From an uncultured Gammaproteobacteria bacterium (GTDB lineage: Bacteria > Pseudomonadota > Gammaproteobacteria > JACCXJ01): a DNA stretch of 64,000 nucleotides. The position numbers and the translations under genes were made by a program. This document shows, piece after piece, positions 17,021-49,321 of this stretch (position 1 is its first letter; every line of letters starts with the position of its first letter). The stretch spans positions 32,001 to 96,000 of the forward strand of contig CAVXTM010000012.1 of NCBI GenBank assembly GCA_963764725.1, in the 5' to 3' direction. Below the pieces are notes generated by a model. The model was not told the DNA's origin. It did not search any database and saw only the letters and a program-made list of their open reading frames with translations.

Positions 17021-17155
17021 GCAACGCCTATGCCATTGCGTTGTATTGATATTCCGATTAATAACATCAACGGGTTAGCGCTATACGCGCCGTAGTTAGC
17101 CAGGCTCCTTTCGATCCGGGTCGGTCAGGTTTACCGTTTGCGCCGTAAGCCTTAC
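17021..17155 (-). promoter_or_regulatory. sigma54 promoter, IHF site and tandem UAS for the otsA locus
   Basis: TGGCATAGGCGTTGC (17035-17021); ATCAACGGGTTA ~17066; GTCA-GGT-TTAC 17124 and GTAA-GCC-TTAC 17145. Confidence 0.82.
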
Positions 17156-17253
17156 AATCGGGGCACGCAGTGCCATGGCTGATGAAGACCGAGCGGCGCC
17201 AGCGTAAACCACGCCATCAGCGAGTTACTCGCTCCAATAGAAGAGGCTGCATC

Positions 17254-18597
17254 ATGTCCCATGTGCTGATAGTCGATGACGATGTCGATGCCGCAGCGGG
17301 TCTGACCGAGTTGGTCGCTCGCGAGGGGTTTACCACGGCCACCGCGCACAACTTGAAGGAGGCGTTCGAGCAGATGGCGCGGCAGCGCCCTGACGCGGTG
17401 CTGCTTGACATTAAATTGCCCGACGGCAGCGGCATGGAGTTGTTCGAGAACATCGAATATCGCAACACCACGGAGATCGTCCTCATCACCGGCTACGCCA
17501 GCCTGGAGACCTCGGTGGAGGCGCTGCGCCTCGGCGCGGCCGATTACCTGACCAAGCCGGTGAATTTTAGACAGGTAAAGAAGATCCTGGCGCGCATCGC
17601 CCGGCCCCCCGAACTCAAGGCCGAGATCGGCCGGCTGCGCGGGGAGCTCCGCAGCCTCGGGCGCTTCGGCCCGCTAGTCGGCCAGTCCGCCGCCATGCAA
17701 AGCGTCTACGATCAAATCGCCCGCGTCGCGCCGACCGCGGCGACCGTGCTGATCACAGGGGAGAGCGGTACCGGCAAGGAACTGGTCGCGCAGACCGTGC
17801 ATGAGCTTAGCCGGCGGCGGAAACAACTCTTTCTGCCGGTCAATTGCAGCGCGATCTCGCCCGAACTGCTGGAAAGCGAGGTCTTCGGTCACGAAAAAGG
17901 GAGCTTTACGGGAGCGACGCGCGAGCACAAAGGCTATTTCCAGCGCGCGGACGGCGGGACTTTGTTCTTAGATGAGATCACGGAGATGCCGATCGAGCTG
18001 CAGGCCAAGCTGCTCCGGGTGCTGGAAACCGGGAGCTTCTTGCGGGTGGGCGCCGAACAGCCCATCGAGACCGACGTGCGGGTGATCGCCGCGACCAACC
18101 GAGAGCCCGCGGAGGCAGTGACGCAGGGCAAGCTCCGCGAAGACTTGCTCTATCGCCTTCAGGTCTTCCCGCTGCACCTGCCGCCCCTGCGCGAGCGAGA
18201 GAAGGACATCGAGCTCCTGGTGAACCATTCTCTGGCCGAATTGAATCAAGCCGAGGGCATGGCGAAGACCTTGTCCCGAGAGGCCCTCGCGCAGTTCCGC
18301 AGCCATTCTTGGCGGGGCAACGTGCGCGAGCTTAAGAATGTCCTCCAGCGCGCGTTTATCATGGCCGGCGAGATCATCGATAGCGACTGCCTGCCACCGG
18401 ATTTTGGCTCGGGGAAGGCCCAGTGCGACTTTTCTTCTAAGGATATACCCGTCGGTCTCAGCATCGCCGAGGCGGAGCGGCGCTTAATCCTCGCGACCTT
18501 GGCGCATTGCGGTGGCAATAAGGAAAATACCGCACAGATGCTCGGGATCAGTCTCAAGACTCTGTATAATCGGTTGCGCGATTACGGGTCGGATTAA
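17254..18597 (+). CDS. sigma54-dependent response regulator (REC, AAA+, Fis-HTH)
   Basis: VLIVDDD, LLDIKLP, GESGTGKE, GSFTGA, FLDEI, GNVREL, LGISLKTLYNRL. Confidence 0.96.
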   Translation: MSHVLIVDDDVDAAAGLTELVAREGFTTATAHNLKEAFEQMARQRPDAVLLDIKLPDGSGMELFENIEYRNTTEIVLITGYASLETSVEALRLGAADYLTKPVNFRQVKKILARIARPPELKAEIGRLRGELRSLGRFGPLVGQSAAMQSVYDQIARVAPTAATVLITGESGTGKELVAQTVHELSRRRKQLFLPVNCSAISPELLESEVFGHEKGSFTGATREHKGYFQRADGGTLFLDEITEMPIELQAKLLRVLETGSFLRVGAEQPIETDVRVIAATNREPAEAVTQGKLREDLLYRLQVFPLHLPPLREREKDIELLVNHSLAELNQAEGMAKTLSREALAQFRSHSWRGNVRELKNVLQRAFIMAGEIIDSDCLPPDFGSGKAQCDFSSKDIPVGLSIAEAERRLILATLAHCGGNKENTAQMLGISLKTLYNRLRDYGSD

Positions 18598-18917
18598 CGC
18601 CTGCGCTCCTGTTCTGCGGGGTCTAGAAACCGCGGCGAAGCTTTTTGCAGACCAGCATACTGTACATAAAATCAACTGTAACACCAGCAGTTGTCCGCTG
18701 CCCGCCGCGTTCCGCGCAGTCACTGATGTTGCTGCCTGGTCCTTTGTATTTACGACACCGAAACCGGCGATTCTTACCGATGGATCCACACTCGCAGGCG
18801 CTGAGCCGTTCGCCGAAGGTCGGAGCTTGCCGGACTATCACGCGGCTGCGGGGACTGACCGGCTTCCACCCGGCCGAGGGCTTTAAATGCCGATCGAGGC
18901 TGCCGAGGGGGCGGCGG

Positions 18918-19053
18918 GTAAGGTTTACAGAGGCGCGGGTAACCCTTACCGATCCTCCCAGCCCAATCGCTTTCCAGGCGCCGCATCGATCGCGACAATG
19001 CCGTGTGCTTCAATTAGATGCATACCTTGGCCACGCCGTGGCATAGGCATTGC
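18918..19053 (+). promoter_or_regulatory. Tandem UAS and sigma54 promoter for the rlpA-like gene
   Basis: GTAA-GGT-TTAC 18918, GTAA-CCC-TTAC 18939; TGGCATAGGCATTGC 19039-19053. Confidence 0.85.
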
Positions 19054-19094
19054 CGGATCCGCATTCAGGAGGGTTATTAACAGGAGGATTGAAT

Positions 19095-19568
19095 ATGTTA
19101 TCTGTGAAATCGTACTCATGGACCGTGGCGGTACCGGTCGCGTTTGTGTTGTCTGGATGCAGCGATGGCAGCGCCAAAACCGATAGAGCCAAGATCCATA
19201 AAGAACCAGCTTTCGAACAGACGGGGAAGGCATCGTGGTACGGACCCGGGTTCCATGGCAAGAAGACTGCGAACGGTGAGATCTATAACCAGAACGAGCT
19301 GACGGCAGCGCACCGAACCTTGCCCTTAGGGACCGAGGTGGAAGTCACCAATGTCAAGAATGGCAAATCGGTTGAGGTCGAGATCAACGATCGCGGGCCT
19401 TATGTAAGGGGGCGCGTCATCGACCTCTCGCGTGCCGCGGCCATCGAGCTTGGGATGAAAGAAAGAGGTCTGGCCGTGGTCCAGATCGAGGCCGAGTCCC
19501 TCCCCAAAGGAAAGGGCCGTAGCGCTGCCCAAGGTGCCGACGGGAGCGGAAAAATCGCCCACAACTAG
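19095..19568 (+). CDS. RlpA-family lipoprotein (DPBB domain)
   Basis: AGGAGG RBS, LSGC lipobox, GKASWYG, TAAHRTLP, INDRGP, IDLS. Confidence 0.92.
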   Translation: MLSVKSYSWTVAVPVAFVLSGCSDGSAKTDRAKIHKEPAFEQTGKASWYGPGFHGKKTANGEIYNQNELTAAHRTLPLGTEVEVTNVKNGKSVEVEINDRGPYVRGRVIDLSRAAAIELGMKERGLAVVQIEAESLPKGKGRSAAQGADGSGKIAHN

Positions 19569-20608: not shown

Positions 20609-21688
20609 GCGGAGATCCGCCAATCGAGGGACCGCCCAGAAAGATGCCCCCATGATGAATGGTCTCCGGCGTTTGCGATGCTCAAGGAGAGCTTCGATTA
20701 CTTTCAGGAGTTGCTCGCTGGGCGAGCACGATCTTCGCCGCGGGCCGTGCGCGAAAGTCACCCCGGTTGCCTTCCCGCTGACTCGCGGGCAGAGGCCGGA
20801 AAAATTCAAATCCAACGTCACTTCATGACTATGCTATAAGGGGACATGCTATGACCCGGAATATGATTACCCTGCTGCTCGCGCTGGGAGCGCTGTTATT
20901 GGCAGGATGCGAGGAGTGGAGCGGCGCTTCGAACGCAAGACCTCGCACCCAGGGTGAGTTTGAAAGCGCCCTTAGCGCGGAAGAGCCTCGTCAGTGACGC
21001 CGTCAGGGGTCGACGGACCTATGCGCTCATCGGACTACTCGGCGGGGGAGATGGGCTGCTCGCCGAGCGCTTCGGCGCGGTCGTTCGAGGATCGCTTTCG
21101 ACGTTATGCTCCGGCTCGAGCACCACCGGTTCGGTCGGATGCATCTCGCGCAACATTGAAGTGACCTTCTCACGTACCGGTTCGAACCTTAGGCACCATA
21201 GAAATACGATGCCATATTGCCTCAGCGCGGATATCGCCCCGACGATGACGAGCACCATACCAGGCACGAACGCCAGAAACAATACGCCAAGTTCTCTGTC
21301 CATAATCATACCCCCTGTTCAACCGCCCACCATCGCGGTGGCCTGCCCGGAGTTATGATCTGGCCCTTAAATACCGTAAGCCGGTTTTCACTTGGTTCTG
21401 CGCGAAAGACAGGACTGATCGAATGCCCGCCAGACCAGGAGCCAAAGGCGGTAGCATGGCAACCCGGTTCCGTCAGCGGAGGGCTTTCCTGGCGTCTTCG
21501 AACCTCTACAGGCCCCACCTTCCCGGACCCCCGACGGCACCATTGCCCGGGGCCGGCTTCGCGTGCCGGGCTCCATCTAGCCCTCGCCTCGCACCATGCC
21601 TTTCGGTGACGTTGCCTCAACTTCTCGTCAATTTGATGCCGGTTCATGATCATCTCCTCTCATAAAGATGTTACCTGGTCGCTAATCA

Positions 21689-21827
21689 TCAAACTCTGCG
21701 CCATCGCCAGCGCCGTAGTCAATAATCTCTTAGTAACAATGAGATAAGCGGTGTGACTAGACGTAGATGCAGGTGTTGGAATGTCCTCTGCTCCGTAAGA
21801 ATTGCAGTCTCCCGATGTAAATCTTGC
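21689..21827 (-). promoter_or_regulatory. sigma54-like promoter (-12 TTGA) and tandem UAS
   Basis: TGGCGCAGAGTTTGA (21703-21689); GTAA-GAA-TTGC 21795, GTAA-ATC-TTGC 21817; downstream AGAGGA RBS and ATG 21653. Confidence 0.65.
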
Positions 21828-26223: not shown

Positions 26224-26412
26224 CTACCTCTTAGCCCCTTCCACTGTTTCATCGAGCTTCTCGCCGGCACGTTCCGCCGGACCTTGGGGATCCAGGGCCT
26301 CCTTAGCCTCGTCCATCGCCTTATCGACCTGCGCACCGGCACGCTCGGCTGGGCCTTGCCGCTCGCACGCACCGAGTCCAAGGATCGCCCGAAGTCCAGT
26401 CGTGCCTCGCAA
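26224..26412 (-). CDS. Small lipoprotein with two GPAERAG repeats; 5' end uncertain or degenerate
   Basis: LGAC lipobox; paralogous to 44116-44271. Confidence 0.65.
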   Translation of the reverse strand: MRGTTGLRAILGLGACERQGPAERAGAQVDKAMDEAKEALDPQGPAERAGEKLDETVEGAKR

Positions 26413-26537
26413 GTATCACCGGCGTGCGGTGCGGCCGTGCAGCTTGAGCGCCAGGACGGAGGCGAGCGGGGCTCACACCCCCTCATGCTCAAACCGATGC
26501 CCAACGATCTAACTCACACGGCCGCACATGACCAGGG

Positions 26538-26778
26538 GCATTAGCCGTGCCACCCTCGTCCATACCGAACGCTGTCGAAGTCAATCAAAGGCTTAGCAAT
26601 TTACTAGATACGCTTCCAGCACATGGGTTCACAGGCCGATCGGTAATAATTGCAAGGGAAATAGCAACTCTTACAGGCGGTTGCTGGTAGACGGCTTGTC
26701 AAATATCGCTGATGTAGTGCTAACCGCTTGAATGTATTGATCCGGGTGTGCAACTTAGAACGGTGGCATAGGCGTTGC
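26538..26778. promoter_or_regulatory. Divergent sigma54 promoters sharing one central tandem UAS
   Basis: TGGCACGGCTAATGC (-, 26552-26538); IHF AATCAAAGGCTTA 26583; GTAA-TAA-TTGC 26643, GCAA-CTC-TTAC 26664; TGGCATAGGCGTTGC (+, 26764). Confidence 0.87.
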
Positions 26779-26865
26779 GCACACGGTCACTAGGCGCGAA
26801 TCGGACGCCCATCTCACGACCCTACAACGATGGTGTTCGAAAACCATTACTTTAAGGAGAAAAAA

Positions 26866-27138
26866 ATGTCAGCAAAAAAGATAAGCACAAAAGCATCTGC
26901 GAGTAAGCAGACGAGTAAGAGTCGCGGTACTACGAAGGGCAGCTCTAAAATGAGTTCAGTTGCTAAAACGCAAATAAAACAGACGGCGGCCAAAGTGCTG
27001 GCCGGAGCGGCTGCGGGCGCAGTTCGCGCGATCATAGGTCCGCTCGAAGAGGCTGCGGGTACGAGCGAAGAGGCTGCGGGTCTCAATAAGCAAGGCGCAA
27101 ACAAGGGCGGGAAGTCTGACGGCAAATCTAGCAAGTAA
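26866..27138 (+). CDS. Small Lys/Ser/Ala-rich protein
   Basis: AAGGAG RBS; first gene of a sigma54-driven operon. Confidence 0.7.
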   Translation: MSAKKISTKASASKQTSKSRGTTKGSSKMSSVAKTQIKQTAAKVLAGAAAGAVRAIIGPLEEAAGTSEEAAGLNKQGANKGGKSDGKSSK

Positions 27139-27148
27139 GCCTTCGGTC

Positions 27149-27595
27149 GTGAGCGATACTGAAAAGAGTGCAACCGGCGCGAAACCGGATGCGGGCGGCG
27201 CAAACTTGCCCTCGCTGATCGGTCGCCTGGGCCACGATATAGTCACTCTCCTCGACACCAAACTCGGCCTACTGAAGCTCGAGATCAAAGAAGACGTAAA
27301 CGCATATGTGCGCGGGCGCGTCTCTATCGGCGTGGGCGGTGTAATCGCAGCCGTCGGGTTCTCGCTGCTCAACGTGGCTATAGCCTTCCTGGTTTCCGCG
27401 CTATTTGAAAAGACTCTGCTCAGCCAACCGGTCAAGTACGCGCTCGGCTTCATAATTACGGGCGTGATCTCCTTGGTCATCGGGGGAGCCGTTATGATAA
27501 GAGCTAAAGACCGATTAGCGAAACAGAACCTCGCGCCCGAAAGGAGCATCGAAGAGCTCGAAAAGGACAAGCGGTGGTTGAAGCGAGAGTCATAA
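27149..27595 (+). CDS. YqjE/phage-holin-like membrane protein
   Basis: LLDTKLGLLKLEIKE, two TM segments, PERSIEELEKDKRWLK. Confidence 0.8.
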   Translation: MSDTEKSATGAKPDAGGANLPSLIGRLGHDIVTLLDTKLGLLKLEIKEDVNAYVRGRVSIGVGGVIAAVGFSLLNVAIAFLVSALFEKTLLSQPVKYALGFIITGVISLVIGGAVMIRAKDRLAKQNLAPERSIEELEKDKRWLKRES

Positions 27596-27646
27596 ACCGA
27601 CTCGGCCTGTTAGCGACAAACGATTTACAGACAAAAGGAGAAAGCA

Positions 27647-28117
27647 ATGGCTAAAAAAAGAGTGCCTGGCAAAGCGCAACTCCAACGCAAAATGGAGGCG
27701 GCGCGCGAGTCCATTTCACAAACCGTCGAGGACATCAAGGACACTGTCGAAGACCAATACGAGTCAGTAAAGGAGACTGTCAGTGGGGCGCTCGACTTCC
27801 GGGAGCCGTTTCAAAAAGACCCCATTGTCTGGAGCATGGGCGCGCTCTCCGCTGGCTTCGCTCTAGGCTACACTCTCGGCTACGCACACAAGAATATAAA
27901 GCCGTCCGGGCGCAAGCGCTCTAAGGTAGCCGCTTTTGCTGACAGCTTCGTTGAGGAACTCTCCACGGTGGGCAATAGCCTCGTCATGCCTGCGCTCAAC
28001 GCGAAGATCAAGCAGCTGTTCGGCTTCGACTTCTCCGACATGTTAGAAGAGATCGGCGGCGTTAAAAAGACACTCGGAAAGAAGAAGTCATCTCGGAAAG
28101 CCGGCGCGAAGTCGTAA
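27647..28117 (+). CDS. DUF3618/ElaB-like protein
   Basis: ARESISQTVEDI, P..W..GA..AGFALG. Confidence 0.65.
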   Translation: MAKKRVPGKAQLQRKMEAARESISQTVEDIKDTVEDQYESVKETVSGALDFREPFQKDPIVWSMGALSAGFALGYTLGYAHKNIKPSGRKRSKVAAFADSFVEELSTVGNSLVMPALNAKIKQLFGFDFSDMLEEIGGVKKTLGKKKSSRKAGAKS

Positions 28118-28158
28118 GGCGCACGACGAAGGATTAAAGTTCCCACTGCGCTATCCTG

Positions 28159-29511
28159 ATGCGCCACGCTGTCACTCTCCCTCTGCTCGCCAGCTTTTCG
28201 ATGCTGGGTTTCGCCGCCTGCGGAGAACGCGCGACATTGCCGGTGCAGGCGGGTATCGGTCGGCAGCCGACGTTGCCGCCGCCGAATCCCACGCTAATCC
28301 CCACCGTCAACATCGCTCCAGCGAAGGGCTGGCCCGCCGGTACAACCCCGATCGCCGCCGCCGGCCTGGCCGTGAGCGCTTTCGCAACCGGCCTGGATCA
28401 CCCGCGCTGGCTCTATGTGCTTCCCAACGGCGATGTACTCGTCGCCGAAACCAACGCCCCACCGAAGCCCGAGGACGGCAATGGCATCCGGGGCTGGGTC
28501 ATGACGCGGGTCATGAAGCGCGCGGGTGCGGGCGTTCCAAGCGCTAACCGCATCAGGTTGCTGCGCGACGCCGACGGGGACGGCATGGCGGAAACGCGAA
28601 GCGTCTTTCTGCAAGGGTTGAATTCGCCCTTCGGTATGACGCTCGTCGGCAGCGACCTCTATGTCGCAAACACCGATGCGATCGTGCGCTTCCCGTATCG
28701 CGACGGCGAAACGCAGATCACCGCGCCTGGAGTAAAGATCGTCGATCTTCCCGCAGGCCCGCTCAACCATCACTGGACCAAGAATGTCATCGCAAGCCGC
28801 GATGGTTCACGCCTTTATGCGACGGTCGGCTCGAACAGCAATGTGGGCGAGAACGGGTTGGAAAAGGAGGTCAACCGCGCCGCAATTCTCGAAGTCGATC
28901 CTGCCACAGGCCGCTCGCGGGTCTTTGCCTCGGGCTTGCGCAACCCGAACGGTCTGGCTTGGCAGCCCCGGAGTGGGGCGCTCTGGACCACGGTCAACGA
29001 ACGTGATGAGATCGGCAGTGACCTCGTCCCCGACTACATGACGTCGGTGAAGGACGGCGGCTTCTACGGGTGGCCCTACAGCTACTACGGCCGGCATGTC
29101 GACGAGCGGGTGAAGCCGCCACGGCCGGATCTGGTCGCGAATGCGATTGCTCCCGACTACGCCCTCGGCCCGCACACCGCGTGCCTCGGGCTTGCCTTCT
29201 ACGAGGGAACCCTCTTGCCCGCGCGGTATGCGGGCGGGGCGTTCGTCGGTCAGCACGGCTCATGGAACCGCAAGCCGCGGAGCGGTTATAAGGTGATTTT
29301 TGTGCCGTTCGTCGATGGTTGACCAGCCGGCACACCCGAGGATGTGCTGACCGGCTTTGTCAATGCGGACGGCGACGCGTTGGGTCGTCCGGTTGGCGTG
29401 GCGGTCGACCGAGCGAGCGCGCTGCTGGTCGCCGACGACGTTGGCAACATCGTATGGAGGGTGACGCCCGCCGCGGAAAAAGGCAGTCGTCCAAAGACGC
29501 CCGGGTGCTAA
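28159..29511 (+). pseudogene. L-sorbosone dehydrogenase-family lipoprotein with in-frame TGA at 29320
   Basis: GLDHPRW, NHHWTKN, GLRNPNG, HGSWNR; same frame continues [15 protein letters not shown] to TAA 29511. Confidence 0.88.
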
Positions 29512-31100: not shown

Positions 31101-31119
31101 GACGGTGCAAGGCCCTGAT

Positions 31120-33671: not shown

Positions 33672-33746
33672 CTAGAAGACGCCTAGCAACGCCAGAATGA
33701 TAATGACGGTAAGTGGTACACCCAGAAGCCACAATATAATAGGCAT
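33672..33746 (-). CDS. 24-aa membrane peptide MPIILWLLGVPLTVIIILALLGVF
   Basis: GAGGAGG RBS, own promoter and terminator; paralog at 43130. Confidence 0.8.
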   Translation of the reverse strand: MPIILWLLGVPLTVIIILALLGVF

Positions 33747-33818
33747 TTTATCCTCCTCTTATGATAAACGATAGCTGCGCTTGTGCCTTCGGCCAAGCCG
33801 AGACAGAGTTAAGTTAGG

Positions 33819-33933
33819 TCATGTTGTGTGCCAAGAGCGACACCATGAAGGAGACAGCCAATTGTCTCGGGTGCCGGGCCGTGCGAAGGAGACTTGATCG
33901 GTAATAGTTGCCGCTTCGCGCGGAAAGTCTTGC
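33819..33933 (-). promoter_or_regulatory. sigma54-like promoter and tandem UAS
   Basis: TGGCACACAACATGA (33833-33819); GTAA-TAG-TTGC 33901, GAAA-GTC-TTGC 33923. Confidence 0.7.
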
Positions 33934-34104: not shown

Positions 34105-34213
34105 GTAATTTTTACAGACTGGCCCGTCGAAATTTCCCGCTCTATGGGTTGTAGTAACCCTTTGATAACGCTTTGCTATCCTTTGCGGGCGATGTATCTG
34201 GTACGGTCGATGC
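34105..34213 (+). promoter_or_regulatory. UAS, IHF site and sigma54 promoter
   Basis: GTAA-TTT-TTAC 34105 with a weak second site at 34126; IHF TATCAAAGGGTTA (-, 34155-34167); TGGTACGGTCGATGC 34199. Confidence 0.78.
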
Positions 34214-34260
34214 TGAGCCCAGGTACGTTAGTTCGATTGACCTTAGTAGGAGGGTAGCAA

Positions 34261-34491
34261 ATGAACCGTACCAGAGCCGAAGAACGCGCCGAACGCAATC
34301 TCATAGAGTCCTTATGGTGGGCCCTGGCATTAGGGCTAACTGTTATTCTAGGCGCACAGATTTACAATAGCGTTTCCTGGGAAATCTACAAGGAGGCACA
34401 GGGATGTGAAGTTACGGAGTATCTAAGCGAATCGGATTGGAGAGACGCCTCAGCATGGTCATGCGCAGATGGCAGCACGCATTTTCGATAG
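34261..34491 (+). CDS. Small single-TM protein with two Cys
   Basis: AGGAGG RBS, downstream of a sigma54 promoter. Confidence 0.7.
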   Translation: MNRTRAEERAERNLIESLWWALALGLTVILGAQIYNSVSWEIYKEAQGCEVTEYLSESDWRDASAWSCADGSTHFR

Positions 34492-34599
34492 ATCGCGTTC
34501 CTACCGGGCGCGGGAGACTCTCCATGAGACCTGGTGCAATTTCCTGTATCGCCGAGTCCAAGACGCGAAGGGTTCCGTAGGAAGACCAGGTTCCACGGA

Positions 34600-36558: not shown

Positions 36559-36807
36559 GTAAAGATTACAAAGAAGTTGGTAAAACGTGCGTGGGGATAC
36601 CCGTGCCTCGCTGACTGTTCTTCACTAGTAACTCTTAGAGCAGCGTTTCCAAAATCGATAATCCCATCCTTCCAAGCTTAGACGAGGAAGGTACAAAATC
36701 ATAGACTTGTAGCTCTCACCTCAATCCACTTACAAGGGGAAGAAAATCCGCGGAGCGCCGATCGCCCAAGATGAGTGACCGCTGATGTAATATGGCATAT
36801 TGAGTGC
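36559..36807 (+). promoter_or_regulatory. Tandem UAS and sigma54 promoter for the GT4/glucosidase operon
   Basis: GTAA-AGA-TTAC 36559, GTAA-AAC-GTGC 36580; TGGCATATTGAGTGC 36793; spacing ~200 bp is atypical. Confidence 0.6.
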
Positions 36808-36940
36808 CCATACGCTTAGGGTGGAAGCCCGGACCGCCGACTCGGGATGACACGTTGACTTCCGTCACCCGCGAGATTGCGGCAAATCACTTTAAGTTAA
36901 TGTACCGGTACGGCATGCCCCGGCAGCTTAGGGAGGAAAC

Positions 36941-37991
36941 ATGAGGATAGCTCAAGTTGCACCGCTTTATGAGAGTGTCCCGCCGCAACTCTACGGGGGC
37001 ACGGAACGGGTAGTCGCATATTTGACCGATGAGTTAGTGCGGCAGGGACACGATGTTACACTGTTTGCGAGTGGTGACTCACAGACGCAAGCACGACTGC
37101 ATCCGATATGCAGGCGCGCGCTGCGTTTGACAGACTGCCGGGACGCGCTGGCTTATCACATGTTGCTGCTGGATCGGGTGGCTCGCGAGGCGACCAACTT
37201 CAACATTGTTCATTTCCATATCGACTACCTGCATTTTCCGCAGACGCGCCTGATGGACCTCCCCAACGTCACCACCTTACACGGTCGTTTGGACCTGCCG
37301 GATCTAGCCCCGATTTATCATGAGTTCAATGAGATGCCAGTGGTATCCATATCTAATGATCAACGCACGCCGCTGCCCTTTGCGAATTGGCAGGCGACCG
37401 TGTATCACGGGTTGCCCGCCGATTCTTACCGCTTGCATCCCGAGCCGGGCAAATACCTAGCTTTTCTAGGGCGTATCTCTCCGGAGAAGCGTGTTCGACC
37501 GGGCGATACGGATCGCACAGCGCGTTGGGATGGAGCTACGTATCGCGGCCAAGGTGGACAAAGTCGATGAAGCCTATTTCAAAGAATGCATTCAGCCCCT
37601 GCTTTCCGACCCTCTCGTCCAGTTTATCGGGGAGATAGGGGAAAAGGAGAAGAACGATTTCCTCGGCAACGCATACGCTTTATTGTTCCCCATCGACTGG
37701 CCGGAGCCTTTCGGCTTGGTGATGATCGAGGCGATGGCCTGCGGTACGCCGGTTATTGCGTACCGGCGCGGCTCCGTCAGCGAGATCGTGCGTCCCGGTG
37801 AGAGCGGGTACGTCGTCGATAATCTGGACGAAGCCGTGGCCGCGGTAGCAAGAGTCGATGCCGTGAATCGTCGACGCTGTCGCCAGGCATTCGAAGCACG
37901 TTTTTGCGCTTCTCGCATGGCCCGCGATTATCTTGCTGTCTACCGCGCTATAATTGACGCCGGCGTCCAGACACAACAACCGGCAGCATAA
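36941..37991 (+). pseudogene. GT4 glycosyltransferase, frameshifted near 37490
   Basis: MRIAQVAPL..YGGTERVV, FLGRISPEK; then EPFGLVMIEAMACGTPVIA in another frame. Confidence 0.9.
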
Positions 37992-38019
37992 AGCCGCCGC
38001 CGGGCACGGGTAGAAAACA

Positions 38020-40185
38020 GTGCCGGAACTAATTCAAGTCGAAGACAACTGGTACGTGCGTGCGACCTCCGCGCGCGCCGACGACCGCCCCCGCGTTCTC
38101 AAGAAGGGGGAAACCTTCGGGATCTTCGACCGGTCCGGCGATATTAGCGCGAACGGCCTCGGCGAGGAGGGGCTTTACCATCAAGGGACGCGTTTTCTGT
38201 CAGCCATGGAGCTGAAGATCAACGGCGCCCGGACTCTGGTGCTCAATTCGGCGGTGCGGGAGGACAATAGCCTTCTAATGGTCGACCTCACTACACCGGA
38301 TCTCTACGAAGCCGCGAAGCTTAGTATTCGCAAGGACACGCTGCACATTTTCCGGGCCAAGCTCTTGTGGGAGGGAGCGCAGTACGAACACATACGTCTG
38401 GTGAATTATGGCGATCAACCGATGAGTCTTAGGATAAGCGTCTTGTGCGAGGCGGACTACGCGGATATCTTCGAGGTTCGAGGTATTCGCCGAGCAGTCC
38501 GAGGAAGCTGCCTTCCTGCACGCCGGCTAGGCCGTGAGTTGCTGCTTGCATACCGCGGTTTGGACCATGTGTCGCGTCATACTCGGATCATCGCCAGCGT
38601 CGATCCAGATCCGGGCACCGGCGCTCGGCTGTATTTTTCGCTAGTGCTCGGCCCACGCGATGAACACGAGCTGTCTTTGACCGCGGTCTGCGAAATCGGC
38701 GAGCGAATCCAAAGTGCCCCGAGCTACGAGCGAATGATGGAGCGATGGAACGTGGCAGTGACGGCGAATACCGAGGCTATCGCCAAAGTTCTTACGTCGA
38801 ACGAGCCGTTGAATCAGTGGTTACAGCGCTCCTCGGCGGATCTGCACATGCTCACAACCGAGACACGGCATGGCCTTTATCCGCACGCGGGCGTACCGTG
38901 GTTCTGCACCGAGTTCGGACGCGACGGGATCATAACGGCATTACAATTCCTTTGGATGCAGCCCGAGCTCGCTCGCGGGGTCTTGAATTTTCTCGCTGCC
39001 GAGCAAGCCGATACCGAGGCGCCCGCCCAAGATGCCGAGCCCGGGAAGATCTTGCATGAAGCCCGGCGTGGCGAGATGGCTGCGCTCGATGAAATCCCGT
39101 TTCGCCGCTACTACGGCAGCGTAGATGCGACGCCCTTGTTCATTCTGCTGGCAGGAGCCTATTTCGACTTGACCGGCGATCGAACCTTCATAGAGAGTAT
39201 TTGGGCCAATATCGAATACGCCCTCGATTGGATTGACCATTACGGTGATACGGATCGCGACGGCTTCGTGGAGTATGCGCGCGAGAGCGTGAATGGTCTC
39301 GAGCACCAGGGTTGGAAGGACTCGGCGGATGCGGTGTTCCATGCGAACGGTCAGCCGGCGCGGCCGCCGATCGCTTTGTGCGAGGTGCAAGGATACGTGT
39401 TCGCGGCAAAGCAGGCGGCCGCCAAGCTGGCAGCGCTTCTCGGCGATCATCGGCGTGCGGAGATCCTTAGCGAGCAGGCCGAGCAGTTGAAGACACGCTT
39501 CAACGAGGTGTTTTGGTGCGCGGACATCCAGGACTTTGCCTTGGCATTGGACGGGGAGAAGCGTCCTTGTTGCGTACCGGCATCGAATGCCGGGCATGCG
39601 CTGTTCACCGGCATCGCTAGTACCGAACACGCCCAGAGCGTAGCGGAAATCCTGCTCGGTGAAGACTCGTTCAGCGGCTGGGGTGTGCGCACCATCGCCC
39701 AAAGTGCAGCGCGCTTCAATCCGATGTCCTATCACAACGGCTCGGTGTGGCCGCATGACAACGGCATCATCGCCATGGGGCTCGCCCGTTACGGATTCAA
39801 GGACCAGGCGCTCGCGATCTTCACCGGGCTGTTCCAAGCAAGTACTACCATGGATCTTTACCGTCTGCCCGAGCTTTTCTGCGGTTTTCCTCGTCGCCCC
39901 GGACAAGGCCCAACGCAATACCCGGTGGCGTGCTCTCCCCAGGCCTGGGCGAGCGGGGCTCCCTTCCATCTGCTACAGGCATTGCTGGGATTGACTTTCC
40001 ATGGGGAGAAGCCGCAATTGCGTATCTATCGTCCCTTGCTGCCCGACTATTTGGACTGGCTGCAAATTAAGAATATGCGAGTGGGAGATGCCGTCCTCGA
40101 TCTCGGTTTTAGCCGTCACGACCAGGATGTAGCCGTCAACGTATTGCGCAAGGAAGGCGACGTGGACGTGGCGGTCCTCGTTTAA
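38020..40185 (+). CDS. Amylo-alpha-1,6-glucosidase (glycogen-debranching-like)
   Basis: AGVPWF..FGRD, EPGKILHE, QGWKDS, SYHNGSVWPHD, ACSPQAWA. Confidence 0.93.
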   Translation: MPELIQVEDNWYVRATSARADDRPRVLKKGETFGIFDRSGDISANGLGEEGLYHQGTRFLSAMELKINGARTLVLNSAVREDNSLLMVDLTTPDLYEAAKLSIRKDTLHIFRAKLLWEGAQYEHIRLVNYGDQPMSLRISVLCEADYADIFEVRGIRRAVRGSCLPARRLGRELLLAYRGLDHVSRHTRIIASVDPDPGTGARLYFSLVLGPRDEHELSLTAVCEIGERIQSAPSYERMMERWNVAVTANTEAIAKVLTSNEPLNQWLQRSSADLHMLTTETRHGLYPHAGVPWFCTEFGRDGIITALQFLWMQPELARGVLNFLAAEQADTEAPAQDAEPGKILHEARRGEMAALDEIPFRRYYGSVDATPLFILLAGAYFDLTGDRTFIESIWANIEYALDWIDHYGDTDRDGFVEYARESVNGLEHQGWKDSADAVFHANGQPARPPIALCEVQGYVFAAKQAAAKLAALLGDHRRAEILSEQAEQLKTRFNEVFWCADIQDFALALDGEKRPCCVPASNAGHALFTGIASTEHAQSVAEILLGEDSFSGWGVRTIAQSAARFNPMSYHNGSVWPHDNGIIAMGLARYGFKDQALAIFTGLFQASTTMDLYRLPELFCGFPRRPGQGPTQYPVACSPQAWASGAPFHLLQALLGLTFHGEKPQLRIYRPLLPDYLDWLQIKNMRVGDAVLDLGFSRHDQDVAVNVLRKEGDVDVAVLV

Positions 40186-40278: not shown

Positions 40279-40391
40279 GTAAGAATTTCTGATCGACGGT
40301 AACAAATACCGATGGGCAGGGGTCGCCGAGGGGGCTCCACCCATTCCCTTTCAAGCAGCGGCGCCGGATCGCGCAATGGTACAAAGGTTGC
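40279..40391 (+). promoter_or_regulatory. Tandem UAS and sigma54 promoter
   Basis: GTAA-GAA-TTTC 40279, GTAA-CAA-ATAC 40299; TGGTACAAAGGTTGC 40377. Confidence 0.78.
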
Positions 40392-40437
40392 CCCGCCTCC
40401 AAACGACCAATTACATTCTTCTTCTATGGAGGCATCT

Positions 40438-40773
40438 ATGAATGAGACATTGCACCAATGTATCCAGGAATGCGTTAACTGCCACGGCATTTGTCTGAAT
40501 ACTATTACCTATTGTTTAGAGCAAGGCGGCCGGCACGCCGAGGGCGGCCATATCCGGCTGTTAACCGATTGCGCCGAGATCTGTCAGACCAGCGCGAACT
40601 TCATGCTTCGCGGCTCTTCCCTGCATGCCCGCACCTGCGCTGTGTGCGCCGAAATCTGCGCTCAGTGCGCCGCAGATTGCGGGCAGTTCAAGGACGATGC
40701 CCATATGCAGCGCTGTGCGGAAGCATGCCGACGCTGCGCCGAATCCTGCCGAGAAATGGCGGCGCATGGCTAA
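40438..40773 (+). CDS. Four-helix-bundle copper storage protein (Csp3/DUF326-like)
   Basis: GGAGG RBS; 16 Cys in CxxxCxxC repeats; no signal peptide. Confidence 0.9.
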   Translation: MNETLHQCIQECVNCHGICLNTITYCLEQGGRHAEGGHIRLLTDCAEICQTSANFMLRGSSLHARTCAVCAEICAQCAADCGQFKDDAHMQRCAEACRRCAESCREMAAHG

Positions 40774-40885
40774 TATTTTACACTTCGGTGGACGTTCAGC
40801 GTATAGGCGCGGATCGTGCCTGCGAGAGCGGTCCCCACTCAACGGATTAGATTATAGGTCCACCCTCCGCGATCCGGTTTAGTCG

Positions 40886-41434
40886 ATGAGCTGGGATACA
40901 GCAGTGAGTGTTTTCATGCAAGAACTGACTGTCGGACTACCGGACCCGGCCCAAACGATACGTGTAACGATGCGTCTCGGTGCTGCCATGCTCCTCGGTG
41001 CGATCGTCGGGATTCAACGCGAGCAGATAGGCAAAGCAGCAGGGCTGCGCACGCATATGCTGGTGGCCGTGGGCACAGCTCTATTCGTGATTGCCGCCCT
41101 GGAGGTCGGTATGTCCATGCGCGATTTATCACGGGTGATCCAAGGCATCGCCGCGGGCATCGGATTCATCGGGGCAGGAGCGATTCTTAAGCTTGCCGAA
41201 GAGCGCCAGATCCAAGGGCTGACGACGGCTGCCAGCATTTGGATGACGGCAGCGGTAGGGGTAGCGGCGGGCCTGGGCCGCGTGGGACTGGCGCTACTTA
41301 GTGCTGTTCTCGCCTGGACGATCCTCGCGGTTGTCGGAGCAATCGAACATCGAATCGAAAGGCGCGCAGCGAAAGCCGAAACCATGAACCGAACTGTATC
41401 GATAATAACTTGCTCCGGTGAGGCGAAACGGTGA
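40886..41434 (+). CDS. MgtC/SapB-family membrane protein
   Basis: AAGLRTHMLV, GIGFIGAG, GLTTAASIW. Confidence 0.93.
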   Translation: MSWDTAVSVFMQELTVGLPDPAQTIRVTMRLGAAMLLGAIVGIQREQIGKAAGLRTHMLVAVGTALFVIAALEVGMSMRDLSRVIQGIAAGIGFIGAGAILKLAEERQIQGLTTAASIWMTAAVGVAAGLGRVGLALLSAVLAWTILAVVGAIEHRIERRAAKAETMNRTVSIITCSGEAKR

Positions 41435-41830: not shown

Positions 41831-41970
41831 CCAACCCTTACAGCCTCGACCGGAAAGTGTTACCGATTCGGGTCCCTATTGCACACCCGTACCTTGTCCC
41901 TCGCACACCCCTAACTGCCTGACTGCGCGCGTTTATGGCCGGACACGCCAAAGCCGGGCATGAAGAATGC
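41831..41970 (+). promoter_or_regulatory. Tandem UAS and sigma54 promoter (repeat copy 1)
   Basis: CCAA-CCC-TTAC 41831, GAAA-GTG-TTAC 41853; GGGCATGAAGAATGC 41956. Confidence 0.8.
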
Positions 41971-41981
41971 TCTCCAGTCAG

Positions 41982-42107
41982 TCATGGCTCACCAGAAGAA
42001 CTAAGATCGCGGCTACGGCGCATGCTGACTACCCCATTTGCCTCCCCCATTTGCCCGCCCTCGGGTGCCCTCTCCCCTAACCGGCATCACGGGCGGGATT
42101 CTTTTTT
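41982..42107 (+). ncRNA. Candidate C-rich small RNA, copy 1
   Basis: Paralog of 49333-49432; CATG..CATG stem, CCCC/CTCCCC motifs, CCCGCCC/GGGCGGG stem plus T-run; no conserved ORF. Confidence 0.65.
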
Positions 42108-42179: not shown

Positions 42180-42644
42180 ATGAGAAATTTGAGACCAGCT
42201 CGTTCGCGTATCCTCGCGCGAAGTAAGGCAGATACCTTGACGGTCAGGATAACCGGAAACTTAGGCCTCAGCCTCAGCTTCGATCTCTGGCATATCTGCC
42301 GTTTGGAGCAAAGCCGCTACCGTCGCTATATCTTCGATCTGGAGAAGATCGTCGTGCTCCATGACTCTGGTTTAGCGTGGCTCCTGATGTTCCAGCGGCA
42401 CGCACTGCGGGCCGGGGCACGGGTCCTGATCGTTAAATGCCGCAACGCAATCGCTCGCCGCTGCGCGGCGATCGGTCTTGAGGTGATAGCCGCCGAGCCA
42501 TGGATTCGACAGCCGATGCTTCGCCAAGGCATGCCTTACCGCGCACCAGTTTGGGGATCTGCAATCGGGCCGAGCGGTGGAAGTCGGGTGCCACACCTCA
42601 GCCTCTGTAAGAATAACGAGCACAATGCACGCGTAATTCACTGA
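42180..42644 (+). CDS. STAS-domain (anti-sigma antagonist-like) protein
   Basis: LTVRITG..FD..YIFDLEKIVVLHDSGLAWLL. Confidence 0.7.
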   Translation: MRNLRPARSRILARSKADTLTVRITGNLGLSLSFDLWHICRLEQSRYRRYIFDLEKIVVLHDSGLAWLLMFQRHALRAGARVLIVKCRNAIARRCAAIGLEVIAAEPWIRQPMLRQGMPYRAPVWGSAIGPSGGSRVPHLSLCKNNEHNARVIH

Positions 42645-43349: not shown

Positions 43350-43547
43350 CTATAGGTTCCTCACCCACCCATCGGCTTCTTCCTGCGCTTTTTCCTTGGT
43401 ATAACCATACTTGGCCTGTAACCGACCGACCAGCTCTTCGCGCTTCCCTTCTATGACATCCAACTCGTCATCGGTAAGATCACCCCACATCTGCTGCGCC
43501 TTACCTCTGACCTGCTTCCAACTACCCTTGACTTGATCCCAGTTCAT
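43350..43547 (-). CDS. csbD: CsbD-family general stress protein
   Basis: MNWDQVKGSWKQVRGKAQQMWGDLTDDEL..YG. Confidence 0.95.
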   Translation of the reverse strand: MNWDQVKGSWKQVRGKAQQMWGDLTDDELDVIEGKREELVGRLQAKYGYTKEKAQEEADGWVRNL

Positions 43548-43623
43548 GTTTTCCTCCTCTATCTCTATGTATTGCGGTTTGTGCTTTAAACCCGCGACTC
43601 AGCCGCGGATGTTCAAATCGACT

Positions 43624-43758
43624 TCAAGTACCGTGCCGCTAAACGGCATAACGCAATTTACCTTTCGGTTTAGTGGGATAGCACAGTCGCTTTGGCGAAC
43701 GGTGAAGTCGCACATTAAGATTGGCAGCAAGAATTTCCGGTTGATTTGTAAGGCTTAC
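43624..43758 (-). promoter_or_regulatory. sigma54-like promoter and tandem UAS for the csbD operon
   Basis: CGGCACGGTACTTGA (43638-43624); GCAA-GAA-TTTC 43727, GTAA-GGC-TTAC 43748. Confidence 0.75.
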
Positions 43759-43899: not shown

Positions 43900-44046
43900 G
43901 TAAGATTTGCAACGACGCAAGGTAATATTTACACGAATTAAACACAGCGTTTCTTTCTAGGGAACCATTTCTGGATCATTACGAGCGCAAACTGACCGCG
44001 ATTGTTCATCTCGGATGCACCAGCCAATAGCGGGCATAAAAGGTGC
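43900..44046 (+). promoter_or_regulatory. Tandem UAS and sigma54 promoter
   Basis: GTAA-GAT-TTGC 43900, GTAA-TAT-TTAC 43922; GGGCATAAAAGGTGC 44032. Confidence 0.78.
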
Positions 44047-44115
44047 TCAGTGGCATGTGATAGTAAACCTCTGGGCGAAGAGCCTCCGACTAATTCGCGA
44101 AAGCGGGAGAATCAA

Positions 44116-44271
44116 ATGAACAAGTTAACATCTATAATACTTGGTGGTCTTGTACTCGGTTCGCTGGCCGGTTGCGGGAACCAAGGCCCTGCGGAACGAG
44201 CTGGGGAGAATGTGGACGAGGCCGTCGAAGAAATGAAGGATGAAGTCGATGACGCGACCGACGCGCGTTGA
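44116..44271 (+). CDS. Small lipoprotein (GPAERAG motif)
   Basis: GGAG RBS, LAGC lipobox. Confidence 0.85.
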   Translation: MNKLTSIILGGLVLGSLAGCGNQGPAERAGENVDEAVEEMKDEVDDATDAR

Positions 44272-48046: not shown

Positions 48047-48066
48047 ACCGCGCGATACTAAACTCA

Positions 48067-48113
48067 TTGACAATCTTTGTCCATGCGCGTATGTTATGTA
48101 CCAGTCGATATAT
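48067..48113 (+). promoter_or_regulatory. sigma70 promoter and probable TetR operator for the SDR gene
   Basis: TTGACA-N17-TATGTT, then imperfect dyad TGTACCAGTCGATATA. Confidence 0.6.
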
Positions 48114-48148
48114 AAGTATCACTCCACTTCCCCAACAGGAGCAAATCT

Positions 48149-48901
48149 ATGACAAAGACACTTACGGGCAAGGTCGCGTTGGTCACCGGCGCGTCCAAGG
48201 GCATCGGTGCTTCCATCGCCAAACATCTGGCGGCCGAAGGCGCGGCTGTGGTCGTCAACTACGCACTGAGTAAAGAAGGTGCCGACGAAGTCGTCGCCGA
48301 GATCGCAGGCAGGGGCGGAAGAGCCATTGCGGTGCAGGCCGATGTCTCAAAAAAGGCAGAGATCGAGCGTCTCTTTTCGGAGACGAGGATGGCATTTGGC
48401 AGGCTGGATATTCTGGTGAACAACGCAGGCATATACGAGTTCTCCCCGCTCGAAGACGTCACGGAAGATCACTTCCACCGGCAGTTTAACCTCAATGTAC
48501 TTGGTTTGCTCCTGGTGTCCCAGGAGGGGATCAAGTACTTCGGTGATGAGGGCGGCAACATTATCAATATCAGCTCAATCGCCAGCACCTACGCGCCGCC
48601 GAATACCTCGGTCTACAGTGCTACGAAAGGGGCAGTGGACAGCATCACGAGGTCGCTGTCCAAGGAACTCGGACCGCGCGGGATCCGCGTCAACGCCATC
48701 AATCCCGGTATGGTGGAAACCGAGGGCGTGCGCGCCGCGGGGATTACCGAGAGCGACATGCGCACGCAGATTGAAGCGCAAACCCCGCTGGGACGGATCG
48801 GACAACCGCCGGACATCGCAACGGCAGCCATCTTTCTTGCTTCCCCGGCCTCCTCCTGGATCACCGGGGAAACGCTCACCATAGCTGGCGGCCTGCACTG
48901 A
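48149..48901 (+). CDS. SDR oxidoreductase
   Basis: TGASKGIG, NNAG, YSATK. Confidence 0.95.
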   Translation: MTKTLTGKVALVTGASKGIGASIAKHLAAEGAAVVVNYALSKEGADEVVAEIAGRGGRAIAVQADVSKKAEIERLFSETRMAFGRLDILVNNAGIYEFSPLEDVTEDHFHRQFNLNVLGLLLVSQEGIKYFGDEGGNIINISSIASTYAPPNTSVYSATKGAVDSITRSLSKELGPRGIRVNAINPGMVETEGVRAAGITESDMRTQIEAQTPLGRIGQPPDIATAAIFLASPASSWITGETLTIAGGLH

Positions 48902-49185
48902 AGTGCCCAGAGGCGTGAAGCCTGACGTGCTACTGAGTGCGACCAACCACAGGTAGTCAATCATCATCACTACGGCGCACTCCGGGATTGCCCTGTCCGT
49001 GCTCGGATTCTTTTTCTTTCGCACCTCATCGGAACGAACCCGCATTGGCATGTTTGTACTCCTGTTTGTCGGCGTGGTGTCTTTTCTCGATTTCCAGGCG
49101 CTCATATCGGTTCTATGCCCGCGTTCTTACGACGCGGGTGTTCGCGGTAGCCCTGCGCCCGCTGGCTTTCGACAGGCTCGCTATT

Positions 49186-49321
49186 GCAACCCTTACAGCC
49201 TCGACTGGAAAGCATTACCGATTCGCCTCTCTGGCACGCCCATTCCCTCTCGCTCGCATATCCTAACTCTCTGACTGGGCGGGGTTATGTCGGGACACGC
49301 CAAGCCGGGCATAAAGAATGC
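49186..49321 (+). promoter_or_regulatory. Tandem UAS and sigma54 promoter (repeat copy 2)
   Basis: GCAA-CCC-TTAC 49186, GAAA-GCA-TTAC 49208; GGGCATAAAGAATGC 49307. Confidence 0.8.

Follow-up and report, generated by a model that had tools for sequence, protein, structure and literature searches.

A probable sigma-54 regulon arranged around polar tandem enhancers and an NtrC-family response regulator in an uncultured gammaproteobacterium

Promoters of the sigma-54 type are tightly off without an activator, and the bacterial enhancer-binding proteins (bEBPs) that activate them bind as dimers at two sites, which nucleates an AAA+ hexamer; looping of the DNA is assisted by integration host factor (IHF), and ATP hydrolysis opens the promoter. 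NtrC recognizes the site TGCACC-N5-GGTGCA, and LuxO recognizes TTGCA-N3-TGCAA, a dyad of 5-N3-5 geometry, and activates several paralogous small RNAs (sRNAs) from sigma-54 promoters. The stress-related genes otsBA, yjbJ, yqjCDEK and elaB, on the other hand, are RpoS dependent in Escherichia coli. Envelope and stress functions under sigma-54 have been described for QseF (GlrR), which with sigma-54 drives the GlmY sRNA and rpoE from upstream activating sequences, according to two reports (PMC6075780, PMC3045617). Here we analyze 64,000 nucleotides from an uncultured soil bacterium of the Gammaproteobacteria (contig CAVXTM010000012.1, positions 32,001 to 96,000; hereafter the window, numbered from its first nucleotide), in which 12 tandem dyad enhancers and 13 sigma-54-type promoters share a span of 32 kb with the gene of an NtrC-family response regulator at 17254-18597. 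Judged from its sequence, the span likely harbors a clustered sigma-54 regulon run by this one bEBP.

A prior sequence-only reading of this DNA had described 12 tandem pairs of GTAA-N3-TTAC dyads, 20-22 bp apart, and all 12 were found in the window where that reading had placed them. The exact dyad GTAANNNTTAC occurs in 7 copies in 64 kb compared to 0.17 expected, a count that none of 100 shuffles reached, and sites with at most 1 mismatch number 26 compared to 7.8 +/- 3.2 in shuffles. When motif and spacing were compared with shuffled controls, as the same reading had proposed, a strict filter for pairs (up to 2 mismatches in each dyad and 3 in both together, spacing of 20-22 bp) retained 11 pairs in the window, with a mean of 0.05 and a maximum of 1 in 100 dinucleotide shuffles; pairing is thus a stronger signal than the count of single dyads. 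Spacings of 20, 21 and 22 bp were found in 1, 5 and 5 of these pairs, respectively, and the remaining spacings within 11-59 bp sum to 5. With 3 mismatches in its second dyad, the pair at 34105/34126 is excluded by the strict filter.

All 12 pairs are confined to 17.1-49.2 kb, every one between called genes. Enhancer 1 (17124..17155, GTCAGGTTTAC and GTAAGCCTTAC, spacing 21) lies between otsA and the regulator gene; enhancer 2 (18918..18949, spacing 21) has two perfect dyads, and it is followed by enhancer 3 (21795..21827, spacing 22) and by enhancer 4 (26643..26674, spacing 21), which is common to two divergent promoters. Enhancers 5 (33901..33933, spacing 22) and 6 (34105..34136, spacing 21, the degenerate pair mentioned above) are close neighbors, as are enhancers 10 (43727..43758, spacing 21) and 11 (43900..43932, spacing 22); between them are enhancers 7 (36559..36590, spacing 21, with 2 mismatches in the second dyad), 8 (40279..40309, spacing 20) and 9 (41831..41863, spacing 22), the last of which is paralogous to enhancer 12 (49186..49218, spacing 22). 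A position-weight scan built from the 12 elements added no site scoring 14 bits or more in 64 kb; since the model was trained on those same sites, this result defines a closed set within the window and is not independent support.

When each element is oriented to its promoter, it proves to be polar. The distal dyad has the form ...GTAA-N3-TTACA, with the terminal A in 9 of 12 elements, while the promoter-proximal dyad ends in TTACCGAT (GGTAA-N3-TTACCGAT), with a G before it and CGAT after it (C in 7/12, G in 9/12, A in 7/12). A CGATC flank had earlier been described as frequent; CGAT does follow the proximal dyad in about 7 of 12 elements, but it is restricted to that side, and given this polarity the flank is better regarded as the promoter-proximal edge of a composite operator of ~38 bp. 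By global alignment, the spacers between enhancers and promoters share 50-62% identity for all pairs but one, which reaches 75%. As the spacers are unrelated except for that paralogous pair, the shared geometry was not simply copied.

We then scanned for sigma-54-type promoters with TGGCACG-N4-TTGCW and obtained 13 promoter-like sites that face away from the enhancers, with scores of 8-10 of 12 and with GG and GC (10/13) or GA (3/13) at the exact -24/-12 spacing. The title of the sequence-only reading gave 14 promoters, one more than the 13 that it listed and that the scan recovered. Distances were measured from the center of the nearer dyad to the first G of GG, a definition that accounts for a constant offset of 6 bp from the 13 distances listed previously, all of which were otherwise reproduced. 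On the minus strand, the promoters are at 17020..17035 (TGGCATAGGCGTTGCC, 95 bp, toward otsA), 21688..21703 (TGGCGCAGAGTTTGAT, GA at -12, 98 bp), 26537..26552 (TGGCACGGCTAATGCC, 97 bp), 33818..33833 (TGGCACACAACATGAC, GA at -12, 74 bp) and 43623..43638 (CGGCACGGTACTTGAA, GA at -12, 95 bp, toward the CsbD gene). Those on the plus strand are at 19039..19054 (TGGCATAGGCATTGCC, 96 bp, toward an RlpA-like gene), 26764..26779 (TGGCATAGGCGTTGCG, 96 bp, from the enhancer shared with 26552), 34199..34214 (TGGTACGGTCGATGCT, 69 bp), 36793..36808 (TGGCATATTGAGTGCC, 209 bp), 40377..40392 (TGGTACAAAGGTTGCC, 74 bp), 41956..41971 (GGGCATGAAGAATGCT, 99 bp), 44032..44047 (GGGCATAAAAGGTGCT, 106 bp) and 49307..49322 (GGGCATAAAGAATGCT, 95 bp). 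Three of the 13 have an almost identical 16-mer.

Equally good promoter matches occur in the background at 1.5 per kb per strand, and with such a density the evidential weight lies in where a site stands relative to the enhancer and not in the match alone. An outward-facing promoter with a score of at least 8/12 was present 60-115 bp away from 11 of 12 enhancers (at 69-106 bp in these 11), compared to 15.2% of 20,000 random positions (binomial, 1e-8). That the distances fall into classes two helical turns apart, as had been suggested, receives modest support: phasing at 10.5 bp gave a Rayleigh p of ~0.013, driven mainly by the class at 95-99 bp (8/13). The exact IHF consensus WATCAANNNNTTR has 2 matches in 64 kb, both inside enhancer-promoter spacers, one at 26583..26595 (plus strand) between promoter 26552 and enhancer 4 and the other at 34155..34167 (minus strand) between enhancer 6 and promoter 34199. 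These two sites had been noted before, together with one in the spacer of enhancer 1 (17065..17077, plus strand), which matches at 12 of 13 positions. With at most 1 mismatch allowed, 6 IHF-like sites are predicted in 1,212 bp of spacer compared to 0.62 expected; they are distributed over 5 of 13 spacers, and no such site was found in the other 8.

The protein encoded at 17254..18597 (plus strand, 447 amino acids [aa]) is an NtrC-family response regulator and the sole bEBP of the window, and 99 bp separate the end of enhancer 1 from the start codon of its gene. Pfam confirmed the order REC, AAA+ and C-terminal Fis-type HTH that had been read from the translation, with matches to Response_reg (1e-26), Sigma54_activat (3e-70, full profile), AAA_lid_14 and HTH_8 (3e-13). 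The receiver has the canonical residues D8, D9, D52, T79 and K101, and the AAA+ domain has the Walker A motif GESGTGKE, LFLDEI and GSFTGA, a variant of the GAFTGA loop, in which Ser at position 2 is tolerated. The nearest solved relatives are the Aquifex NtrC-family structures 4l4u_A (1e-96) and 1ny5_A (1e-89). Against NCBIfam equivalog models, the protein scored below all cutoffs, i.e., AtoC (419/714), NtrC (389.5/558.6), the PEP-CTERM regulator (357/503), LuxO (349/800), NtrX (341/600), ZraR (339/760) and GlrR (276/763). It belongs to an NtrC-family subfamily that has no name above the curated cutoffs, and the HTH segment LGISLKTLYNRL is near-invariant throughout this subfamily. Among the best 120 of 8,000 scored hits in public protein sets, relatives share 65-76% identity; cluster mates at 90% identity or more are labelled 'Chromatiales bacterium', 'Chromatiales bacterium USCg_Taylor' and 'Gammaproteobacteria bacterium'.

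To look for the motif near orthologous regulators, a further check proposed by the sequence-only reading, we used 80 loci from one-genome-per-species contigs (1.45 Mb in all, mostly Burkholderiales), whose regulator relatives are 56-69% identical. At the threshold applied to the window, these loci contain 34 tandem dyads, compared to ~1 expected by extrapolation from the window shuffles. Most of them (30/34) are found no more than 1.5 kb from the regulator gene, in a zone that covers 17% of all sequence other than the gene itself (p = 3e-19), and they are distributed over 28 of 80 loci; the positive loci include two Burkholderiales metagenome-assembled genomes (MAGs; L001 and L002), Herbaspirillum, Noviherbaspirillum, Paraburkholderia, Caballeronia, Trinickia, Mycetohabitans and one Acidobacteriota MAG. 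An otsA homologue is found ~1 kb downstream of the regulator in 28/80 loci, a set that largely overlaps the dyad-positive one. When 23 of the otsA loci were examined, a dyad pair (TGTAc..GTTACAAA ... TTTTACCGG, at most 3 mismatches) was present between regulator and otsA in 19, and a sigma-54-type promoter was present 35-90 bp before otsA in 22. The polarity of the enhancer is the same in the relatives as in the window (TTACA...TTACCG, with the TTACCG side toward otsA), and the window order of otsA, promoter, enhancer and regulator represents the same link in divergent orientation. In L001 (3888-12596) and L002 (11670-20225), the regulator is followed closely downstream by a GH94 gene of the cyclic beta-1,2-glucan-synthase type (~2,850-2,900 aa), which has a dyad pair and a sigma-54-like promoter immediately in front of it. 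The predicted wiring from regulator through enhancer to sigma-54 promoter is supported by this conserved synteny, and the regulator-enhancer-otsA core is conserved as far as Burkholderiaceae.

Several of the related loci have further features beside the regulator. In many Burkholderiales loci, a bEBP without REC (AAA+ plus HTH, ~340-366 aa) is encoded upstream of the regulator relative on the opposite strand, 55-60% identical to the AAA+-HTH part of the regulator, e.g., at 7643-8701 in L031, 8356-9456 in L009, 7574-8593 in L004 and 8591-9643 in L039. An rpoN homologue, either the primary or a second copy, is located within 10 kb of the regulator relative in 28/80 loci (for instance, L009 5898-7397, L015 15597-17069 and L077 5240-6574), and the homologue in L077 has a dyad pair and a sigma-54-like promoter directed into it. 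In L031 (Paraburkholderia fungorum), an 83-aa Pro-rich open reading frame (ORF) with a second sigma-54-like promoter in front of it lies between regulator and enhancer (11464-12133), and a 70-aa hydrophilic ORF is located between the enhancer and the otsA promoter. In the Herbaspirillum locus L004, a PAS-containing hybrid histidine kinase (11595-14402, minus strand) is convergent to the regulator relative and is a candidate for the class of sensor.

Based on these features and on how characterized bEBPs work, we propose the following mechanism. A kinase would phosphorylate D52 of the regulator as the input; regulator dimers would then occupy both dyads, two helical turns apart on one face of the DNA, and the AAA+ ring would assemble. 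DNA looping, which IHF may aid at some of the promoters, would carry the ring to closed sigma-54 holoenzyme, and ATP hydrolysis via the GSFTGA loop would open the promoter. The output would comprise trehalose synthesis by OtsA, sugar-solute enzymes, CsbD, the YqjE-like operon, the RlpA-like lipoprotein, a Csp-like protein with MgtC, tiny lipoproteins and a 24-aa membrane peptide, with two candidate C-rich sRNAs as a possible post-transcriptional arm that acts through pairing with Shine-Dalgarno sequences.

The genes behind the predicted promoters are as follows. Promoter 17035 faces otsA, encoding trehalose-6-phosphate synthase (15091..16728, minus strand; Pfam GT20, 5e-134; 531 bits against TIGR02400, whose cutoff is 565), with a leader of ~280 nt. 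Promoter 19039 precedes the gene of an RlpA-family DPBB lipoprotein (19095..19568, plus strand), whose unit may include an M15-like peptidase gene (19953-20423), and promoter 21703 precedes a 113-aa Arg-rich ORF of odd composition and doubtful coding status (21306..21647, minus strand). From the shared enhancer 4, promoter 26552 faces the gene of a 62-aa putative lipoprotein with GPAERAGE repeats (26224..26412, minus strand), a paralogue of the product of 44116-44271, and promoter 26764 faces a putative operon (26866..29322, plus strand) that opens with a 90-aa Lys/Ser-rich protein and continues with a YqjE-like membrane protein (27149-27595; PF07332, E 4e-21), a 156-aa membrane-anchored helical protein (27647-28117) and a GSDH-like dehydrogenase (28159-29322). 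The window had previously been credited with YqjE/ElaB-type genes; the YqjE assignment stands, but an ElaB-type identity for 27647-28117 was rejected, as Pfam and Atlas yielded only sub-threshold, DUF3618-like leads.

Behind promoter 33833, a strong ribosome-binding site precedes a gene for a very hydrophobic peptide of 24 aa, MPIILWLLGVPLTVIIILALLGVF (33672..33746, minus strand), which matched no family; a hairpin and T-run, read by eye, follow this gene. Promoter 34199 is followed at 34261..36339 (plus strand) by the gene of a 76-aa membrane protein and then by that of a HAD-IIB phosphatase fused to a P-loop ATPase (34534-36339). The unit behind promoter 36793 (36941..40185, plus strand) encodes a GT4 glycosyltransferase in two overlapping frames (36941-37570 and 37491-37991) and a GDE_N/MGH1-like glycoside hydrolase (38020-40185). 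The ORFs of the N- and C-terminal GT4 domains overlap by ~80 nt in different frames, which indicates either a frameshift (pseudogene) or an assembly error. The GT4, HAD phosphatase and GDE/MGH-like hydrolase probably constitute a second sugar-solute or glycoside pathway, and these enzymes behind 34199 and 36793 could make or turn over a second compatible solute; weak matches to sucrose-phosphate synthase and phosphatase among them are a lead only. Promoter 40377 precedes the genes of a Cys-rich four-helix-bundle protein (Csp1-like/DUF326) and an MgtC-family protein (40886-41434) in a unit at 40438..41434 (plus strand). Promoter 43638 faces the gene of a CsbD/YjbJ-family protein (43350..43547, minus strand; Pfam CsbD, 3e-19), and promoter 44032 faces that of a 51-aa lipoprotein with GPAERAGE repeats (44116..44271, plus strand), after which ORFs at 44315-44692 and a SYLF lipoprotein gene at 44943-45509 may belong to the same unit. 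Altogether, the target set, as annotated from sequence, suggests a role for the regulon in protection against osmotic, desiccation or envelope stress.

The two remaining promoters, 41956 and 49307, had been listed previously, but the paralogous candidate sRNAs behind them had been missed. With starts placed 12 nt after the -12 element, candidate sRNA 1 spans ~126 nt (41982..42107, plus strand), and candidate sRNA 2 spans ~100 nt (49333..49432, plus strand) and is 86% identical to sRNA 1 over 88 nt. Both contain C-rich tracts (CCUCCCC and CAUUUGCC, with CCUCCCCC tracts in sRNA 1) followed by a 7-bp GC stem and a U-run. The units 41831-42107 and 49186-49432 are paralogous through enhancer, spacer, promoter and ~100-126 nt beyond, with a mean column identity of 80% over two aligned stretches of ~460 nt and 75% identity between the spacers. 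The reading frame that opens at the beginning of copy 2 stops after six codons in copy 1, and copy 1 has a 25-nt insertion. Promoters 41956 and 49307 are candidates for driving paralogous non-coding units rather than genes. A gene for a STAS-domain protein (weak match; 42237..42644, plus strand) begins 130 nt after sRNA 1, and a Dodecin gene (49545..49751, plus strand) begins 113 nt after sRNA 2 and would be expressed from promoter 49307 only if the terminator were read through.

Searches with Rfam returned only a tRNA from the whole window at gathering thresholds and nothing from 41700-49700 at E up to 1, and blastn-short and nhmmer searches of the 80 loci for sRNA homologues retrieved only the two window copies. 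With their loops of more than 8 nt, the sRNA terminators were missed by a simple terminator scan, which showed no excess over shuffles. The C-rich tracts suggest pairing with Shine-Dalgarno sequences. A target prediction with RNAduplex on 40 translation-initiation regions gave implausibly long duplexes, and its result was discarded.

Several points weigh against a regulon of the kind proposed here. The promoter at 36793 is an outlier at 209 bp from its enhancer, three promoters (21703, 33833 and 43638) have GA rather than GC at -12, and in other lineages enhancer-promoter distances range from 44 to ~450 bp. At the threshold used, no tandem dyad was found up to 1.5 kb from the regulator in 52/80 related loci; closely related Paraburkholderia and Caballeronia supply many of the positive loci, so that the counts are not independent, and the statistic given above overstates independence. 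Pfam detected neither rpoN nor a cognate NtrB-type kinase in the window, the single kinase (4230-5627) being of the HisKA_3 type, and the REC-less bEBP next door in many relatives could share or own the motif. The targets are labelled as stress genes by family name, several of the small ones fall into no family, and the ORF at 21306-21647 is possibly non-coding. As for the sRNAs, which are known from two copies only, covariation was found in 0/14 pairs, and their folds are not more stable than shuffles (z = +0.6 and +1.0).

That the dyads are read by another activator encoded outside the window, either a different bEBP or a REC-less paralogue, with the local regulator serving other targets or a subset, would fit with the 55-60% identical paralogue that many of the 80 loci encode upstream of the regulator, with an HTH recognition segment that is common to the whole subfamily, and with the window covering 64 kb of a ~406-kb contig. 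We nevertheless consider it unlikely: the window has the dyads but no second bEBP, one enhancer is situated 99 bp upstream of the regulator start codon, and the motif tracks the REC-containing regulator in loci with and without the short paralogue, e.g., L001 and L002. The repetition of the units might instead reflect copies of a repeated or mobile module, with recurrence and spacing arising from duplication and not from regulatory selection; the paralogous units 41831-42107 and 49186-49432, the nearly identical 16-mer in three promoters and the insertion sequence (IS) elements that flank the island are in keeping with this. However, the other spacers are no more alike than the 50-62% baseline of global alignment, the gene behind each unit is a different one and has its own ribosome-binding site, and the same architecture stands beside orthologous regulators in other genera, where the flanks are unrelated. 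This explanation was rejected on the spacer comparison, and we regard it as highly improbable.

A regulon run by the bEBP at 17254-18597 being the likely arrangement, its scope is a separate matter. The sequence-only reading had called it a general-stress regulon under a master regulator, and its sigma-54 wiring is borne out by the sole bEBP of the window, the enhancer upstream of its gene and the same dyad beside its relatives. We found both labels, general stress and master regulator, to go beyond the data, since the view extends over 64 kb, several genes in the 35 kb that the reading covered have no such promoter, and a REC domain implies one specific signal. No sigma-54-type promoter of this kind was found at the GTPase genes (29508-32421), DUF1207, Peptidase_Mx or the TetR/SDR pair, and with several genes in the span lacking one, the island is not one regulon end to end. 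That sigma-54 and this bEBP constitute the general stress response of the organism, replacing a master switch of the RpoS, SigB or EcfG type, would agree with the finding of families that are RpoS dependent in E. coli (otsA, yjbJ/CsbD and the yqjE type) behind sigma-54 promoters here and with the clustering of 12 enhancers in 32 kb. Such a scope seems to us rather unlikely, as a receiver-domain regulator implies one dedicated signal and not the integration of many stresses, and as rpoS status and the remaining regulon lie beyond the 64-kb view. In addition, the core in other genera is narrow, consisting of otsA, the glucan-synthase-like gene and small envelope proteins, and an osmotic or envelope response fits this core better than general stress does.

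A more ambitious reading, which we put forward tentatively and consider possible rather than probable, is that the members of a widespread bEBP subfamily act as the dedicated switch for a sigma-54-driven osmotic/desiccation survival programme, here grown into a 32-kb island with 13 promoters and two Shine-Dalgarno-mimicking sRNAs and doing RpoS-type work. The conserved core would then consist of the regulator, the polar tandem enhancer and otsA, often with the REC-less paralogue and an rpoN copy nearby. If true, this would provide a first function for the orphan 'Fis-family sigma-54 activators' of Burkholderiaceae and possibly for Bordetella BP2158. In a preprint (PMC11722255), BP2158 of Bordetella pertussis and the Burkholderia 'Fis family' proteins Bcam2365, Bcam2211 and Bcam2715 are betaproteobacterial activators of sigma-54 for which the regulon is said to be unknown, and a sigma-54 promoter precedes the activator gene; the regulator-enhancer-otsA link may explain such orphans. 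In our set, L044 (titled as a Bordetella parapertussis MAG) encodes a relative 62% identical to the window regulator, and L044 and its relatives L051 and L062 have no tandem dyad at threshold and no sigma-54 promoter at the position described for BP2158. Orthology with BP2158 is a lead only. The hypothesis is directly testable, since cultivable Paraburkholderia, Caballeronia, Trinickia, Mycetohabitans and Herbaspirillum keep the regulator-enhancer-otsA link.

The surroundings of the regulon include several mobile elements. Two Mutator-family (IS256-like) transposase genes with identical Pfam scores (51338-52582 and 54995-56239) lie in direct orientation around a nitronate-monooxygenase-like gene, and an IS630-like DDE_3 transposase gene is located at 13515-14573, so that the island is bracketed by IS elements. 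A plasmid origin was rejected, a megablast search of 15-24 kb against PLSDB having returned one weak 342-bp match; at ~406 kb, the contig is chromosomal in scale. A CsbD fragment without its N-terminus (24368-24556, minus strand; KAKQMWGDLTDDELD...) stands beside a DDE_Tnp_1 transposase remnant (25107-25445) and probably represents a degraded paralogue of the CsbD gene at 43350-43547. The two adjoining large GTPases (29508-32421, minus strand), inside the island, match MMR_HSR1, weakly Dynamin_N, and DUF697. A TIR-domain protein (11759-12640, minus strand; TIR_2, 2e-20, with a ThsB_TIR match) is followed by a small Cys-rich CWC protein and is possibly a defence function unrelated to the regulon. 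Outside the enhancer span, with no dyad pair near, are genes for a universal stress protein (62041-62490, minus strand), a Ser/Thr protein kinase (56799-58835, plus strand) and a tRNA (61525-61596, plus strand).

In our literature search, which covered subscription journals thinly so that an earlier description is possible, no sigma-54 activator of otsA, CsbD or a similar set was found to be described, and a comparative survey of sigma-54 functions makes no mention of trehalose, otsA, glucan or CsbD (PMC3162934). What is new here is a precise polar operator that can be read from the sequence for a bEBP subfamily without a name above curated cutoffs, together with the placement of trehalose synthesis, CsbD and YqjE-type proteins behind enhancer-dependent promoters, whose tight off-state would suit costly protective functions.

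Among the described systems, the NtrC/NtrC1 group (NtrC at glnAp2; NtrC1 and NtrC4 of Aquifex) shares with the window the order REC-AAA+-Fis-type HTH, paired dyads ~70-110 bp upstream of a -24/-12 promoter and IHF-type sites at some promoters. Unlike NtrC, the window regulator scores 389.5 compared to a cutoff of 558.6, its predicted operator is GTAA-N3-TTAC, its targets are stress-protection and not nitrogen genes, and the window has no adjacent NtrB-type kinase. LuxO-Qrr of Vibrio likewise combines a REC-AAA+-HTH activator with a 5-N3-5 dyad, which is here (T)GTAA-N3-TTAC(A), and with paralogous sRNAs, of which the window has two candidates; it differs in that the regulator scores 349 compared to 800, the sRNAs match no Rfam family, Qrr included, and most window targets are protein coding. 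QseF(GlrR)-GlmY/rpoE, ZraSR and PspF of enterobacteria resemble the locus as sigma-54 bEBP systems for envelope and stress functions, with an sRNA among the outputs, but the scores (276 compared to 763 for GlrR, 339 compared to 760 for ZraR), operator and targets differ, and the window regulon is far larger and clustered. The curated scores make the regulator a member of neither the NtrC, the LuxO nor the QseF group. Finally, the targets include the otsA, CsbD/YjbJ and YqjE families also represented by otsBA, yjbJ, yqjCDEK and elaB of E. coli, while the promoters predicted in the window are of the -24/-12 type with enhancers and would depend on an ATPase activator, not of the sigma-S/sigma-70 type. 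Compared to these systems, the mechanism is that of a textbook bEBP and sigma-54, the operator is new, and the stress-protection target set is unusual.

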